A DNA stretch of 64,000 nt. It comes from a virus (Duplodnaviria; Heunggongvirae; Uroviricota; Caudoviricetes). The notes beneath the pieces were generated by a model, which searched no databases, was not told where the DNA came from, and saw nothing but the letters and a program-made list of their open reading frames with translations. The DNA lies in the IMG/VR virus record IMGVR_UViG_2690316121_000006; one strand, 5' to 3'. The translations under genes were made by a program, and so were the position numbers. Below, piece after piece: positions 24,379 to 35,808 of this stretch; within the stretch, counting starts at the first letter, position 1, and each line of letters opens with the position of its first letter.

Positions 24379-24403
24379 GTCAACAAGTGACTTTCAATAA
24401 AAT
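24379..24403 (+). promoter_or_regulatory. putative late promoter element (GTCAACAAGTGACTTT ... ATAAAAT)
   Basis: Shares the AACAARTGA core with four other sites; contains AAAGTCA-N5-TGACTTT inverted repeat. Confidence 0.35.
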
Positions 24404-26221: not shown

Positions 26222-27811
26222 ATGTCTCAATATTCAATTCAACAGTCATTAGGTAATGCATCCGGCGTCGCGGTTAGCCCGATCAATGCCGATGCGACGT
26301 TATCTACCGGTGTTGCATTAAATAGCAGCTTGTGGGCTGGTATTGGCGTATTTGCGCGTGGCAAGCCGTTTACTGTTCTTGCGGTTACTGAGTCCAATTA
26401 CGAAGATGTTCTCGGCGAACCGCTGAAGCCGTCTTCCGGCTCACAGTTCGAACCAATTCGCCATGTATACGAAGCTATTCAGCAAACGTCTGGTTATGTT
26501 GTCCGTGCTGTTCCGGATGATGCGAAGTTCCCGATTATTATGTTCGATGAATCAGGCGAACCGGCTTACAGTGCGTTGCCATACGGTTCTGAAATTGAAC
26601 TTGATAGCGGCGAAGCCTTTGCTATCTACGTTGATGATGGTGATCCGTGTATTTCACCTACCCGTGAGTTAACCATCGAAACGGCAACAGCGGACAGCGC
26701 GGGTAATGAACGCTTCCTCTTAAAACTGACCCAGACGACTTCGCTCGGTGTGGTAACGACCCTGGAGACACACACTGTGTCTTTGGCGGAAGAAGCGAAA
26801 GATGACATGGGCCGCTTGTGTTATCTGCCTACTGCTCTGGAAGCCCGTTCTAAATATCTGCGCGCGGTTGTTAATGAAGAGCTGATTTCGACAGCGAAAG
26901 TAACAAACAAAAAATCGTTGGCGTTCACCGGTGGTACCAACGGTGATCAATCGAAAATCTCAACTGCTGCGTACCTGCGTGCGGTGAAAGTGCTGAACAA
27001 TGCCCCGTACATGTACACCGCTGTTCTCGGCCTGGGGTGCTATGACAATGCGGCGATCACCGCGTTAGGTAATATCTGTTCTGATCGCCTGATTGATGGC
27101 TTCTTTGATGTTAAACCGACATTGACGTACACGGAAGCGCTGTCTGCTGTTGAAGATACCGGTTTACTTGGTACCGATTATGTAAGCTGTTCTGTCTATC
27201 ACTACCCGTTCTCCTGCAAAGACAAATGGACCCAATCCCGTGTGGTCTTTGGTCTGTCTGGCGTGGCGTACGCGGCGAAAGCTCGTGGCGTCAAGAAAAA
27301 CTCTGATGTCGGCGGTTGGCATTACTCACCGGCTGGTGAAGAACGTGCCGTCATTGCTCGTGCGTCAATTCAACCGCTGTATCCGGAAGATACCCCGGAC
27401 GAAGAAGCAATGGTCAAGGGCCGTCTCAATAAAGTATCTGTGGGCACCTCTGGCCAGATGATCATCGACGATGCTTTAACTTGCTGCACGCAGGATAACT
27501 ATCTGCACTTCCAGCACGTCCCATCCCTGATGAATGCAATCAGCCGTTTCTTTGTCCAGTTAGCCCGACAGATGAAGCATAGCCCGGACGGTATTACTGC
27601 GGCTGGCCTGACTAAAGGGATGACCAAACTTTTAGATCGCTTTGTCGCCTCCGGCGCTCTGGTGGCTCCTCGTGATCCTGATGCTGACGGTACAGAACCG
27701 TATGTGCTGAAAGTTACGCAGGCGGAATTCGATAAATGGGAAGTAGTCTGGGCCTGCTGCCCGACTGGCGTAGCCCGTCGTATCCAGGGCGTACCGCTGC
27801 TTATTAAGTAA
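26222..27811 (+). CDS. late virion structural protein
   Basis: 529-aa ORF in the same late operon. Confidence 0.5.
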   Translation: MSQYSIQQSLGNASGVAVSPINADATLSTGVALNSSLWAGIGVFARGKPFTVLAVTESNYEDVLGEPLKPSSGSQFEPIRHVYEAIQQTSGYVVRAVPDDAKFPIIMFDESGEPAYSALPYGSEIELDSGEAFAIYVDDGDPCISPTRELTIETATADSAGNERFLLKLTQTTSLGVVTTLETHTVSLAEEAKDDMGRLCYLPTALEARSKYLRAVVNEELISTAKVTNKKSLAFTGGTNGDQSKISTAAYLRAVKVLNNAPYMYTAVLGLGCYDNAAITALGNICSDRLIDGFFDVKPTLTYTEALSAVEDTGLLGTDYVSCSVYHYPFSCKDKWTQSRVVFGLSGVAYAAKARGVKKNSDVGGWHYSPAGEERAVIARASIQPLYPEDTPDEEAMVKGRLNKVSVGTSGQMIIDDALTCCTQDNYLHFQHVPSLMNAISRFFVQLARQMKHSPDGITAAGLTKGMTKLLDRFVASGALVAPRDPDADGTEPYVLKVTQAEFDKWEVVWACCPTGVARRIQGVPLLIK

Positions 27812-29264: not shown

Positions 29265-29774
29265 ATGGGGCACAATAACACTAAGGGAAACCGTAAATTT
29301 ATTAAGGGCCGCTATACTGCCAACGCGGCCAAAGGCGAACGACTGGTATCTTCTGAATTCCAGCTCACTTTTGCAGGCTATGAAGATATCAGTGTACTGG
29401 TTCGTACGTCGCAAATCCCTGAAATGACTCGCGAGGATGTGGAGGACTATGGTCCGAATGGTGTGAAGTTCAACCAGCACGGACCAATTCGAAACTCTGG
29501 GGAAATCCAGGTCCAGTGCGTGGAGACTATCGAAGGCGATATTCTTCAGTTCATTAAGGATCGCATTGCGGCGAAGGACTATGTTGATATCACGATGGCT
29601 GCTACCCCTGAATCCAAATCTTCCGGGGTTAACGCTGTGACAAAAGCTGCTACAACAATTGAAATGTTGGACTGCAAAATCTACAGTGATGCAATCGACT
29701 TTAGTACCGAAGATGTGACTGCCGCTGTGCGCCCGTCACTTCGTATCGTCTACAACTGGATTGAGTGGGATTAA
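29265..29774 (+). CDS. late structural protein
   Basis: 169-aa ORF, last of the operon before a strong terminator. Confidence 0.45.
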   Translation: MGHNNTKGNRKFIKGRYTANAAKGERLVSSEFQLTFAGYEDISVLVRTSQIPEMTREDVEDYGPNGVKFNQHGPIRNSGEIQVQCVETIEGDILQFIKDRIAAKDYVDITMAATPESKSSGVNAVTKAATTIEMLDCKIYSDAIDFSTEDVTAAVRPSLRIVYNWIEWD

Positions 29775-29793
29775 GAGTCATCCCTTGTATTTT

Positions 29794-29818
29794 AAAGCTC
29801 CTTCGGGAGCTTTTTTTA
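29794..29818 (+). terminator. intrinsic terminator
   Basis: AAAGCTCC-TTCG-GGAGCTTT followed by TTTTT. Confidence 0.65.
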
Positions 29819-29909
29819 TAACCTTTTTATATAAAAATGCATCGATAACATTGTCTGGAGTTTTATGTTAGATTATTAATGTTCTAATAAACTACAATTA
29901 TTGAGGTAG

Positions 29910-30542
29910 ATGTTTGTGCCTGTACTGTTAAAGGGGGACTCTAAAATGGCTGTGATTCCAATGTCGTACTCCCCGGGTACTGTCGCTCGTCGATTTTCGA
30001 TCCTGGACGGAGTTACCATCCAGGGTGTGCTTTACCAGGTTATATGGGATTCCAAAACCCCATTTGCTGCCGTAATAGAGGCTGCTCCTTCTGTTATCGA
30101 TGGTGATATGCGCCATAAGGTTGTCGCTACTCTTGAACTTCAACGTCGCCCACAGCTTGAAGGCGTACTGGTGAGGAAGTTCTGGGAAGATAACGATGTT
30201 GCCCAGATTGAAGGTATCGTGGTTGATGGAATCGTCCGGGATGTCGGTTTAGCCACTTTTGTTTATGAAACCGTAGCTTCAAAAGCCGGAGTTGTTTTGC
30301 TAAGTGACAATGAGCAATACGAAGGCGGAAAGGCTCTTTGGCAGCACATCGCTCGTCGTTCTTCTGAACTAAAAGTTTTTATCCTGGACACCGATACTGC
30401 TCAGTATTACCCATTTGATGGCGAACGTGTTTGCTATGACGGGAAAAGTATTCCTGAATCCGAGATATGGAGTGAACATCCGGATCGAAGTAAGCATGGG
30501 GTTGTTCTTGTCGCAGAATCCATAACTGGAAAGGCGGCATAG
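29910..30542 (+). CDS. hypothetical protein
   Basis: 210-aa ORF flanked by AT-rich non-coding sequence. Confidence 0.45.
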   Translation: MFVPVLLKGDSKMAVIPMSYSPGTVARRFSILDGVTIQGVLYQVIWDSKTPFAAVIEAAPSVIDGDMRHKVVATLELQRRPQLEGVLVRKFWEDNDVAQIEGIVVDGIVRDVGLATFVYETVASKAGVVLLSDNEQYEGGKALWQHIARRSSELKVFILDTDTAQYYPFDGERVCYDGKSIPESEIWSEHPDRSKHGVVLVAESITGKAA

Positions 30543-30721
30543 CAGTAAAAAATTCCTTGCTCCTTGACAGAGGAGAGGATTAATCTAAGTACGCTAAGCA
30601 TAGGTATGGCCCCGGTTAATGTTAAGCGTTGTGCGGGACGCATAATGTTTACTGGGGCTTTCTTTTATCTATTTTGGGATAATCCTGAATTCCGTAGTAT
30701 TTGGCATCGGCTGCGGCTACA

Positions 30722-30973
30722 TCAGCGTTTGACTCTATTTCTATAGAAATCACCTGGAAGGGTGAATACCCACATCAGAAGAAACGTTGCAGCAAACATG
30801 ATCCCTAATGGCCAGAATATGCCAAAAAAAATCATTATCCAAAAACGATCCCACCAGGCCATTTCTGCATTAGCTCGCAAAATATATCGACTTAATGCGT
30901 ATATCAGCCCACCGATTAGTATATAGATGGGAATAGATACCAGGATAGTCATAGCGTTAGTCTCAATGAGCAT
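30722..30973 (-). CDS. small integral membrane protein
   Basis: 83 aa with two or three hydrophobic helices; downstream of the Ail/Lom-like gene. Confidence 0.4.
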   Translation of the reverse strand: MLIETNAMTILVSIPIYILIGGLIYALSRYILRANAEMAWWDRFWIMIFFGIFWPLGIMFAATFLLMWVFTLPGDFYRNRVKR

Positions 30974-31032
30974 AACGAATATCGCCAGAGCAATGTATAA
31001 ATCCCTCTGCGCCGGGCAGAGGGACTAAATAG

Positions 31033-31548
31033 TTAAAATCGGTAACCGACACCAAGCATCCAAATGCTATTGCTTAGATCACCTGGTTTAGAACGTTCAT
31101 ACGAGAGATCAACTGCAAACTGCGGAGCTGGGTTAAATTGAAGCCCAAGTCCATAAGCAAAATCGGTTCCAAAGCCAGCATATGACTGTCCATTCAGTTT
31201 TGCTGTTGCATCCGCATGGCTTAAACCCACCAAACCGTATGCACTCAGCAATTCATTGAATCTGTATGATGGACCAAAAGTAAATGAGGCATACTCAACC
31301 TTGGCTTTGGCGGCATTCCATAGGTTTGTGTTTGACTTTTCGTAAGTGAGCGAAGCTAATCCACCCCACGTAGGATCCATTTCGTAGCGATATTTAATAT
31401 TCACGCCTTTTGGATCTTTTATATCTCCGCCTTTAATCGTTGCGCTTCCTTGGGCAAAGTCTAAAGAAAGAGTGTGCTGATATGCGGAGGCAGTCCCAGC
31501 AACCCCCAAGGCACATGCCAGAAGGGCCGTTAAAACTACTTTTTTCAT
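31033..31548 (-). CDS. Ail/Lom/PagC-family outer-membrane beta-barrel protein
   Basis: 171 aa; signal peptide, NIKYRYE, GLQFNP...DLSYE and C-terminal LGVGYRF, collinear with lambda Lom as recalled. Confidence 0.85.
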   Translation of the reverse strand: MKKVVLTALLACALGVAGTASAYQHTLSLDFAQGSATIKGGDIKDPKGVNIKYRYEMDPTWGGLASLTYEKSNTNLWNAAKAKVEYASFTFGPSYRFNELLSAYGLVGLSHADATAKLNGQSYAGFGTDFAYGLGLQFNPAPQFAVDLSYERSKPGDLSNSIWMLGVGYRF

Positions 31549-31643
31549 GGAAAAAGTTACCTATAAAAACGTTAAAAATAATACTGGTGACAAAATAGTG
31601 TGTATTGAGCGTTAAATACACGTAAAGATTCTATCATTCGCGA

Positions 31644-32486
31644 TCAGCCGCGAAAACCAGTTGGAATATAAAATTCCTTTTCTTTTCTGGTAGATAGGAC
31701 CATATCCAGAGCCTCGTTTACCGTCATGCAATGCGGCAGATTATCGAAGTTTGATATCCCGCCCATATCAGGAGAACGCTTGTTCTTCAGGTAAGCATAT
31801 TTCCGCGCTGCCGCCTCTACTTTCTGCTTGAACTCATGTTTTTGAGCGCGTTTTTTGGATAACCGCAGATTGTCAGCCTTTGCTTTTGCCTCAGCGATCC
31901 AGGAAGTCAAATTTTTGAGCCTGGTCGTTCCGGCACCGCCGGAAACTGATCTTTTTGTTTTTTTAATTTGTGACTTCTTATTCTTTATTGCCACGTCATC
32001 CTGACAGGGGGAGGGGGTATCATTTTGACATGGGGGTGTGGATAAAAAATCAAATAAAGCCAATGTCTTAGCGAGAACAGCTTTAACCTTTGTTGCGGCT
32101 GAAGAGATCTTTAATTTGCTTTCAATTAGCGCATTTTTGGCTTGTTGAGCAAAGGCTAAAAAGGATGGTGTAAACCGGTACAGGTTAGCGCGGCGTTCAC
32201 GGTGATCGCCGATAATAATCTCTACCGACAGGATTCCTTTGTTTACAGCTTCACGGAATGCGCGAACGACGGTTGATTGGCTATAACCAGTTTCTGCCGC
32301 GATCATGCGGTGAGGCTTGTGAATGAAGTATTCACTGGTTGTTGCCGCGAGATTTGCACATTGCGACAGGATATGCCCGGCACTACGGGATAGACCGGAG
32401 TGTGTTACAAAGCAGGCTAATTCATAGCCAGAAAAAGTAAAATCGCTCATCGTTATACAGCTCAGGAAAGTGACTTTAGCCAGCAT
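31644..32486 (-). CDS. HTH protein, lytic replication protein RepL-like
   Basis: 280 aa with HTH (IAAETGYSQSTVVRAFREAVNKGIL); second gene of the operon headed by the KilA-N gene; the RepL assignment is by position and size only. Confidence 0.5.
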   Translation of the reverse strand: MLAKVTFLSCITMSDFTFSGYELACFVTHSGLSRSAGHILSQCANLAATTSEYFIHKPHRMIAAETGYSQSTVVRAFREAVNKGILSVEIIIGDHRERRANLYRFTPSFLAFAQQAKNALIESKLKISSAATKVKAVLAKTLALFDFLSTPPCQNDTPSPCQDDVAIKNKKSQIKKTKRSVSGGAGTTRLKNLTSWIAEAKAKADNLRLSKKRAQKHEFKQKVEAAARKYAYLKNKRSPDMGGISNFDNLPHCMTVNEALDMVLSTRKEKEFYIPTGFRG

Positions 32487-33385: not shown

Positions 33386-33402
33386 AAATTTATTAGAGCA
33401 AA
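33386..33402 (-). promoter_or_regulatory. C1-type operator (16/17)
   Basis: Plus AAATTTATTAGAGCAAA; reverse strand reads TTTGCTCTAATAAATTT, about 70 bp upstream of the KilA-N gene start. Confidence 0.55.
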
Positions 33403-34875: not shown

Positions 34876-35056
34876 TGGGCGTAACGCGGTTTTACGGACA
34901 CAAAAATACCGCAATATCGGATATCTGCGGCTGTCCGCACAATCATTCAGGCTGCTAAACCCGGTCGCAGAATTTGCTACGACAGCGGAACTATAAGCCT
35001 GAACGATTAAAAGGTCAATATGATGCGAAAAGATAGCATTCGCGACTTAAAAACAC

Positions 35057-35073
35057 AAATTTATTAGAGCATT
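35057..35073 (-). promoter_or_regulatory. C1-type operator (16/17), Op51-like
   Basis: Plus AAATTTATTAGAGCATT; sits at the head of the reverse immunity operon and 70-100 bp upstream of the forward AT-rich module. Confidence 0.55.
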
Positions 35074-35169
35074 GATTGTATAATAAATACACAAATGGAG
35101 CTAATAACCTCTTTTTTTTAAAGGCGAAAATATGTACCCTAAATGGGGTATAAGGCAGGTGAGGTTTTA

Positions 35170-35808
35170 ATGAGAAAACTATTACTACCGTTATTATTTA
35201 TGGCTGGGACTGTTAATGCAGCATCAAGTGTAAAGGAGATTTGTACAGATTATACGAAATACCTTGGGCACGTTTACGGTTTCACTGTCAGTCAGGACGG
35301 CAAAATGAAAAAAGCTCTCCAGAATGATATGACACGCTTAAGTTTGTCTGAAGCAATGGTTCAGCAAGAAATGTATAAGGTTGCGACAGATGATGCTGCA
35401 AAAATGTATTATTCGAAATTTCTTAATCCTAATCTTAATGAATATAACCGTTCGGCTTTTAATCAGATGGTAGCGTATTGTGAAACTGCACCAGATATGA
35501 TGATTCCTAGTTGGGCTGTATTAGTGGCTAATGGAAAAATTCGCAAAGAAGACCAAGGAAAATCTTTAAGTAGCTATATAAATAGCGAACAATTTCTGAA
35601 TGCGCGTGGCATGCGTACTCAAAATACTCAAGGTGCGCTTGAGCGGAGGGCTTTAGGGATCGCTGATACAAATGATACTGATAATTTGCCCCCTGGAATA
35701 AAAAAATGTGTTGAAACTAAGTTAGCTCTAATGAAACGGGACAGCCCTAACATTCCTGTTTCACAACTTACCGCTACGGCAACTAGTCTCTGCAAAGACG
35801 GGCTTTAA
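35170..35808 (+). CDS. secreted protein, unknown function
   Basis: Start MRKLLLPLLFMAGTVNA-A (Sec signal) with AGGTGAGG RBS; ORF track begins 27 nt earlier; AT-rich codon usage. Confidence 0.5.
   Translation: MRKLLLPLLFMAGTVNAASSVKEICTDYTKYLGHVYGFTVSQDGKMKKALQNDMTRLSLSEAMVQQEMYKVATDDAAKMYYSKFLNPNLNEYNRSAFNQMVAYCETAPDMMIPSWAVLVANGKIRKEDQGKSLSSYINSEQFLNARGMRTQNTQGALERRALGIADTNDTDNLPPGIKKCVETKLALMKRDSPNIPVSQLTATATSLCKDGL

Follow-up and report, generated by a model that had tools for sequence, protein, structure and literature searches.

The 64,000-nucleotide stretch of DNA described here (IMG/VR record IMGVR_UViG_2690316121_000006), the whole of which is referred to as the window, is a P1-like phage-plasmid of the genus Punavirus. 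The slot between its genes bplB and repL contains an open reading frame (ORF) for an eight-stranded outer-membrane β-barrel that belongs to the Ail/Lom/OmpX family, which is 171 residues long and is encoded by positions 31033-31548 of the minus strand. The barrel protein forms a new and isolated clade of this known family, situated in a known variable slot. The slot is composed of three cassettes that assort independently and is not a single island: the two other genes, encoding a 198-residue protein and a small membrane protein, represent the majority state of the plasmid backbone, so that of the three the barrel gene alone is a rare insert. There is about an even chance that the barrel gene is an accessory surface gene of the lysogen, for which the binding of host factors is the best guess, this last step being taken on family precedent only.

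The assignment of the barrel protein is based on profile matches and on alignments to proteins of known structure. The Pfam models OMP_b-brl (PF13505) and Ail_Lom (PF06316) match with 89.5 and 80.9 bits, above their cutoffs of 28.7 and 23, respectively, and PHROG 108, 'Lom outer membrane protein', matches with an E-value of 7e-47. Residues 26-171 of the barrel protein align to residues 6-157 of the Yersinia pestis Ail structure 3QRA (E 4e-29), which is the best match among solved structures and has the same pattern of strands and turns over the whole mature protein. The protein can also be aligned to OmpX, and the similarity to OmpX and Ail ranges from E 1e-20 to 4e-29. Gaps in an alignment of 18 family sequences are confined to four blocks. 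The protein is thus a genuine member of the Ail/Lom family, and the Ail/Lom/PagC barrel announced by the original prediction, which was made from the nucleotide sequence, is borne out by the Pfam scores above threshold, the PHROG 108 match, and the end-to-end alignment to 3QRA. In RefSeq, records of the gene already carry one of the labels 'Ail/Lom family' and 'Lom outer membrane protein'. Among NCBIfam models, the OmpX equivalog (NF006917) scores best and aligns end to end (residues 1-171 of 171).

The N-terminus of the barrel protein reads as a Sec signal peptide consisting of MKK, a hydrophobic core, and the segment MKKVVLTALLACALGVAGTASA/YQ, which ends ASA/YQ. The C-terminus has the sequence GVGYRF, in which G166, G168, Y169, R170, and F171 do not vary among the aligned family members, as in a signal for the β-barrel assembly machinery (BAM). 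The signal peptide together with the C-terminal aromatic residue (GYRF) leads to the expectation that the protein is exported and inserted by BAM, with eight strands and four short loops. The signal peptide contains the string 'LLAC', but its interpretation as a lipoprotein site was rejected, because Cys12 is replaced by valine in several alleles. Prediction of the structure from the single sequence by AlphaFold (AF2) gave an unusable model with a predicted local distance difference test score (pLDDT) of 42; therefore, the barrel fold is assigned by sequence homology.

The organization of the slot was established by mapping breakpoints in a comparison with eight related loci. Similarity changes sharply at positions 29816/7, 30580/1, 30833/4, and 31707/8, and these four breakpoints delimit independently assorting cassettes, which excludes a single three-gene island. 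The barrel gene is carried by a divergent block of 874 bp (30834-31707, minus strand), recognized by its breakpoints and by drops in identity. Its contents are the 5' half of the gene for the small membrane protein, a hairpin, the barrel gene itself, a spacer of 95 bp, and the final 21 codons of repL. At its edges, the identity of the DNA to a relative that lacks the barrel gene falls from 96% to 55% within repL, and from 88% to 54% within the small ORF. The variant 3' end of repL is present in exactly 36 plasmids of the PLSDB database, the same number as the barrel gene. The moron island of the original prediction therefore has to be reduced to the barrel gene, which fits the description by itself; the slot as a whole consists of three separate cassettes, and the neighboring genes belong to the backbone.

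The barrel gene behaves like a classical moron in several ways. The first is its presence or absence among close relatives that are otherwise syntenic: bplB was found in 680 PLSDB plasmids, 36 of which (5%) have the barrel gene, and in 301 PLSDB plasmids the small ORF directly adjoins repL. This is the comparison that the original prediction had proposed. Furthermore, the slot is dispensable in P1, the gene has a conserved 3' hairpin and an AT-rich spacer upstream, and neither a C1 operator nor a late promoter is next to it. Composition and flanking signals give a less clear picture: the guanine-cytosine (GC) content is 0.444 for the barrel gene and 0.421 for the divergent block versus a mean of 0.472 for the window, the 3' hairpin has a poor U tract, and a conserved -10-like element was missed by a consensus scan. 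The 36 plasmids with the barrel gene come mostly from Escherichia albertii from wild birds, and the remainder from Escherichia coli and the Salmonella SJ46 group. The gene always occupies this one locus: in six of six IMG/VR contigs and in all plasmids that were fetched, repL is followed by the barrel gene, the small ORF, the gene of the 198-residue protein, and bplB; the full arrangement is found in 7 of 523 complete E. coli genomes that have a matching region, and the barrel protein is present on many hundreds of public contigs. No study of the barrel gene in P1-like elements was found in the literature, and the papers on SJ46 and JL22 do not mention it.

Some occurrences of the gene lie on another kind of plasmid or on a chromosome. 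A 168-kb conjugative IncF plasmid, NZ_OZ039654.1, has a P1-derived fragment at positions 88273-93940, which retains part of bplB together with the barrel gene and is flanked by insertion sequence elements. Hence the gene is able to move out of its phage-plasmid setting. Two chromosomes of E. coli ST2747 (NZ_CP007392.1 and NZ_CP007393.1, at approximately 2.225 Mb) have the full arrangement with 96% identity, and the arrangement occurs at six chromosomal places in all. The chromosomal sequences suggest integrated P1-like elements.

The drops in identity at the edges of the divergent block, together with the linked variant end of repL, indicate that the barrel gene was not dropped into the present backbone but arrived by homologous block exchange from a diverged P1-like lineage. 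The donor lineage would already have had the order repL, barrel gene, and small ORF. It was not found among 80 species-representative genomes and 27 viral contigs, and none of the distant homologues of the barrel protein in the same set is encoded next to a gene for RepL. A search of 5.8 billion proteins, species-representative genomes, and IMG/VR returned no barrel proteins between 97-99% and 46% identity. The nearest relatives outside P1-like elements, from Arsenophonus, Xenorhabdus, Photorhabdus, Proteus, and Serratia, are 42-46% identical. The nearest of them, from Arsenophonus (45%), is encoded by an insert in the tail operon of a lambdoid prophage, between the tape-measure gene and gpM, and the Proteus homologue is chromosomal.

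Two side observations concern the edges of the block. The last 21 codons of repL (31644-31707, minus strand) are a diverged allele that is restricted to the 36 plasmids with the barrel gene. In the RCS47/pKBN10P04869B group, a TnpB element of the IS200/605 family (positions 4079-5248 of locus L007 and 5182-6351 of locus L002) stands in place of the 5' half of the small ORF, with its left junction within approximately 3 bp of the breakpoint of the barrel block. The near coincidence of the two junctions suggests a hot spot of recombination or insertion.

Comparison of alleles gives pairwise ratios of nonsynonymous to synonymous substitution rates (dN/dS) of 0.1-0.4, with dS of up to 0.15, among eight DNA alleles. 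The reading frame is intact in all eight of them and in 15 of 15 protein variants. The predicted extracellular loops of the 15 protein alleles are invariant except for I38V and D129N, and most changes affect the signal peptide, strands of the barrel, or two of the periplasmic turns. Because of the low dN/dS and the nearly invariant loops, the barrel gene can be considered functional and constrained, under purifying selection. Diversifying selection on the surface loops was ruled out by the same invariance. These data bear on the explanation that the barrel gene is a neutral passenger, which has no selected function and hitch-hikes, within a single plasmid lineage, with a recombinant allele of repL. 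The strict linkage to the variant 3' end of repL (36 of 36) and the concentration in one host lineage, E. albertii, are as such an explanation would have them. However, the selection on an intact reading frame, the occurrence of the protein on so many public contigs, and the spread of the block to E. coli, to Salmonella, and to an IncF plasmid speak against a passenger, and it is very improbable.

The barrel gene is separated from repL by a spacer at positions 31549-31643 (minus strand), which has a GC content of 0.305 and contains an extended -10-like element and no strong terminator. The element, TGaTAGAAT at 31636-31628 (minus strand), was recognized by eye upstream of the barrel gene and overlaps the region of the repL stop codon. 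The length of the spacer varies between 82 and 95 bp across alleles, and diverged alleles with a 10-bp indel retain a -10-like TGaTAAACT. A scan of positions 29500-32000 for the sigma-70 consensus returned three sites versus 5.4 expected in shuffled sequences, and none of the three is in either of the spacers of the slot. The promoter-like region of the original prediction is thus weak, with a -10-like element found by eye and matches of the consensus scan that do not exceed chance. The only structure in the spacer is a weak AU-rich hairpin. Since it contains no convincing terminator, read-through from the C1-repressed kilA-repL operon is likely after induction. The barrel gene, which is co-oriented with kilA-repL and directly follows it, may therefore not be a gene of the lysogen alone but be induced during lytic growth.

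A search for C1 operators within three mismatches found none in the region 29800-31700 and seven elsewhere in the window, including that of kilA/repL at 33386-33402. In P1 and in relatives without the barrel gene, an intact C1-operator core, ATTGCTCTAAT, directly follows repL (Orlf/Op55 of P1). A degenerate core of this type, ATTGCTCTGG, is located here at 30994-30978, behind the 3' hairpin of the barrel gene, and varies among alleles. The 3' hairpin itself, CCCUCUGC-N5-GCAGAGGG (31000-31026, minus strand), directly follows the stop codon of the barrel gene, has a folding energy of -21.4 kcal/mol (z -2.95), and in eight alleles has a conserved GC-rich stem and a variable loop. Weak termination or stabilization of the 3' end would be conceivable functions. 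A search with the pattern of the late promoter LP23 found no late promoter near the barrel gene or the gene of the 198-residue protein.

The arrangement on the minus strand allows the explanation that the barrel gene is the distal gene of a lytic kilA-repL unit, made only in lytic growth and with an envelope role such as lysis timing or envelope stress. The gene is on the same strand as repL and 82-95 bp away from it, the spacer lacks a strong terminator, and the consensus scan identified no promoter there; furthermore, the genes rlfA and rlfB at this place in P1 are annotated 'replication-linked' and are positioned behind a C1 operator. However, the -10-like element has been kept across diverged alleles, even across the 10-bp indel, the C1 operator-like core has been lost in the lineage with the barrel gene, and the IncF plasmid keeps the barrel-gene fragment without an intact lytic operon. 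The slot is also dispensable for plaque formation by P1 (PMC10695390). A purely lytic role is thus quite improbable.

According to the favored explanation, the barrel gene is an accessory surface gene carried in the bplB-repL cargo slot. Its product would be exported and inserted by BAM, forming a small barrel of eight strands whose four loops are short. Basal transcription in the plasmid-prophage state would start from the extended -10 element at the repL stop codon, which it overlaps, and read-through from the C1-controlled kilA-repL operon would raise the level of the gene after induction. A basal level of expression in the lysogen that rises on induction fits the regulatory pattern suggested by the sequence, and it is the behavior reported for lom of phage lambda (bioRxiv 10.1101/2025.02.28.640651). 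The benefit would lie in changed surface properties of the lysogen; the best guess, modeled on Ail, Rck, and lambda Lom, is the binding of host factors, which would serve adhesion or the evasion of complement. The precedents in the family are adhesion, invasion, and complement resistance for Ail, Rck, and PagC, and adhesion for lambda Lom.

Several findings weigh against this explanation. The barrel protein misses the cutoff of the OmpX equivalog (116.3 versus 176 bits) and that of the Rck equivalog 'resistance to complement killing' (NF011777; 79.1 versus 258 bits). Its loops are short like those of OmpX, with EL1, EL2, and EL3 shorter than in Ail by one, four, and one residues, respectively, and they are among the shortest in the family alignment. 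Therefore, serum resistance or adhesion is for this protein a matter of family precedent only. The invariant loops exhibit no diversification such as immune pressure might drive. The putative promoter of the barrel gene escaped the consensus scan and its Shine-Dalgarno sequence is weak, and the position of the gene directly downstream of the lytic operon suggests a role in the lytic phase. Furthermore, only one of four Y. pestis paralogues gives serum resistance, and the activities reside in the loops, which are not conserved across the family (PMC3417512). Membership in the Ail/Lom family thus does not imply serum resistance or adhesion.

The barrel protein can be compared with several characterized members of the family. 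Lambda Lom belongs to the same families (PF06316; PHROG 108) and is likewise a phage-borne, dispensable eight-stranded barrel encoded beside essential phage genes. However, the similarity to it is weak and partial (E 5e-14 to chain C of PDB entry 9wso). Lambda Lom has 206 residues and longer loops, and its gene is part of a siphovirus late tail operon, whereas the barrel protein has 171 residues and a gene that neighbors the lytic replicon in a P1-like myovirus plasmid. Ail of Y. pestis shares the pattern of strands and turns described above; however, the sequences of its loops are unrelated to those of the barrel protein, and its gene is chromosomal. The ligand-binding sites of Ail lie in the extracellular loops (PMC3417512). 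The precursor of E. coli OmpX (1QJ8) is identical in length, with 171 residues, and has short loops. OmpX orthologues are approximately 40% identical to the barrel protein, but OmpX is a core chromosomal gene, whereas the barrel gene is borne by plasmids and phages. Rck and PagC of Salmonella are from the same family, and Rck is also plasmid-borne; however, the barrel protein is not an orthologue of Rck, because its 79 bits are far from the equivalog cutoff of 258.

The strongest competitor of a host-directed accessory role is a phage-directed one, in which the barrel is a surface factor that blocks adsorption to lysogens or to cells committed to lysis, especially after induction. It would act in superinfection exclusion or prevent the wasteful adsorption of progeny. 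Expression of lambda Lom strongly protects cells against lambda-vir, and other eight-stranded barrels block the adsorption of T7 (bioRxiv 10.1101/2025.02.28.640651). These adsorption-altering barrels are likewise small, and they illustrate a possible mode of action for the protein described here. The barrel gene directly follows the C1-repressed kilA-repL with only the weak AU-rich hairpin in between, and, as there is no convincing terminator after repL, induction should raise the level of the barrel as it does for lambda lom in its late operon. The invariance of the surface loops and the C1 operator-like core, present after repL in relatives and degenerate here, also agree with a block of adsorption. 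By contrast, OmpX and OmpA gave no defense phenotype, and the adsorption-altering barrels cluster apart from OmpX-like proteins, OmpX itself being negative (bioRxiv 10.1101/2025.02.28.640651). The barrel protein is nearer to OmpX and Ail than to lambda Lom by the E-values given above, and PADLOC found no match for any of the three proteins of the slot. A block of adsorption is as live an alternative as serum resistance or adhesion, and is given about one chance in four. The host-directed surface role is tentatively ranked slightly ahead of phage exclusion, because of the family precedent and the pathogenic hosts.

A more far-reaching version can be formulated, in which the barrel is an adsorption blocker that is raised by read-through from the C1-controlled lytic replicon and shields lysing or lysogenic cells from P1-like phages or from other phages dependent on lipopolysaccharide or outer-membrane proteins. 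'Virulence' morons of the Ail/Lom type would then serve primarily in conflicts of phage against phage, and the 874-bp block with its variant RepL C-terminus would be a recombining exclusion module in phage-plasmids of E. albertii. This version is unlikely.

E. coli, E. albertii, and Salmonella commonly harbor P1-like phage-plasmids, which have been noted as carriers of resistance genes. If the barrel alters complement resistance, adhesion, or susceptibility to phages, a surface trait would be spread among enteric pathogens, notably bird-associated E. albertii, by a plasmid-prophage that moves by infection and transduction. The barrel gene is well delimited but is an ordinary accessory gene. 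The gains of the analysis are the exact boundaries of the cassettes, the prevalence of the gene in approximately 5% of P1-like plasmids, the evidence for purifying selection, a candidate GNAT fold for the 198-residue protein, and a corrected picture in which the neighboring genes are outside the insert with the barrel gene.

The slot itself has been published as variable region 5, one of eight hypervariable regions in P1-like phage-plasmids (PMC9603915), and contains rlfA-rlfB-pmgF in P1. The P1 genes rlfA, rlfB, and pmgF are non-essential, and bplB is essential (PMC10695390). The region occupies the same place between bplB and repL in P1, but its contents there, pmgF, rlfB, and rlfA (DUF3800), which are preceded by the C1 operator Orlf, are unrelated to the putative GNAT-fold gene, small membrane protein gene, and barrel gene of the present element. 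The genome of Salmonella phage SJ46 matches positions 29700-31700 of the window over the full length with 99% identity, and the E. coli plasmid pCombat11I9-3 (NZ_CP021729.1) matches positions 29800-31643 with 99.8% identity. The left flank of the slot consists of plus-strand genes, with the tail sheath gene (26222-27811) upstream of gp21 and pmgG, which are followed by bplB (29265-29774). The right flank is formed by minus-strand genes for the annotated lytic replication initiator repL (31644-32486), the last 21 codons of which (31644-31707) lie in the divergent block, kilA, and ant. The order of the flanking genes is the same in P1, SJ46, and RCS47.

The left boundary of the variable slot is an intrinsic terminator (29794-29820, plus strand), identified by a scan and by reading, which ends the late structural operon LP23 > 23-22-21-pmgG-bplB. 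Its hairpin, AAAGCUCC-UUCG-GGAGCUUU, at positions 29794-29813 directly behind bplB, is followed by seven T and has a folding energy of -13.3 kcal/mol (z -3.2). Similarity to all relatives stops at position 29816. The P1 late promoter LP23 has an exact match at 24385-24403. All elements listed in the original prediction are present at its coordinates, and the location it gave, between a terminator of the structural operon and genes of the lytic replicon, was correct, but its description of the slot as AT-rich holds clearly for the two spacers (29775-29945, GC 0.316, and that between repL and the barrel gene) and only mildly for positions 29820-31640 as a whole, whose GC content of 0.432, compared with the window mean of 0.472, corresponds to the 10th percentile among windows of the same length. 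An Rfam scan of positions 29500-32000 returned two sub-threshold matches only. The partial match to STnc130 is the hairpin of the late-operon terminator read on the opposite strand, and the match to SAM-III scores 22.7 versus 45 bits; both were treated as chance.

The first cassette (29817-30580, plus strand), delimited by breakpoints and by the annotations of relatives, consists of an AT-rich leader and the gene of the 198-residue protein (29946-30542, plus strand). Its place in relatives is taken by pmgF (in P1) or by a gene for a hok/mok-type toxin. The hok/mok-type type I toxin gene (positions 2814-2969 of locus L008 and 3192-3347 of locus L004) is exchanged for the cassette at the same two breakpoints. 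The protein of 210 residues in the original prediction exists as an ORF at 29910-30542 (plus strand), and a start at 29916 would yield 208 residues; however, the RefSeq start at 29946, which has an AGGGGGA Shine-Dalgarno sequence 7 nt upstream and yields 198 residues, is likelier. The protein previously had no family annotation, and a profile search against the PDB gave no match. An AlphaFold model based on an alignment of 20 sequences has a pLDDT of 69 and a predicted template modeling score (pTM) of 0.70. The protein contains an invariant R-x-x-G-x-A motif, which fits the acetyl-CoA loop of GNAT (acyl-CoA N-acyltransferase) proteins; the pyrophosphate-binding motif of this superfamily is R/Q-x-x-G-x-G/A. 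A GNAT fold is predicted from the model and the motif with moderate confidence, as an assignment at the level of the fold.

The segment 30581-30833, which is common to almost all relatives, contains a strong hairpin in addition to the small ORF's 3' half. The hairpin is long and imperfect, is followed by a U-rich tract (30608-30675, plus strand), and is positioned between the convergent genes of the 198-residue protein and the small membrane protein. The fold of positions 30543-30680 has an energy of -45.8 kcal/mol (z -3.5), and none of 200 shuffled sequences was as stable. The hairpin, which is in a segment shared with the hok-type variants, is probably the terminator of the gene of the 198-residue protein.

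The small membrane protein, which is also in the original prediction, is encoded at 30722-30973 on the minus strand and has two hydrophobic segments in its hydropathy profile and a match to phrog_3772 (E 5e-41). The ORF has 83 codons, and most annotators start it from the second ATG, which gives 76 residues. The gene is a mosaic, with its 3' half derived from the backbone and its 5' half from the block of the barrel gene, with the switch at 30833/4. The protein is dispensable, because the TnpB element replaces its 5' half in the RCS47 group.

The sequence AATGTTCTAATAAACTA at 29878-29894 (plus strand), upstream of the gene of the 198-residue protein, matches the consensus of the C1 operator at 13 of 17 positions by our own count. 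With four mismatches it is beyond the limit of three, and it is not claimed as an operator. The site overlaps a TACAAT -10-like hexamer at 29893-29898. A patch of low GC content (0.35) is present at positions 35000-35600 of the window, beyond the ant/icd region.

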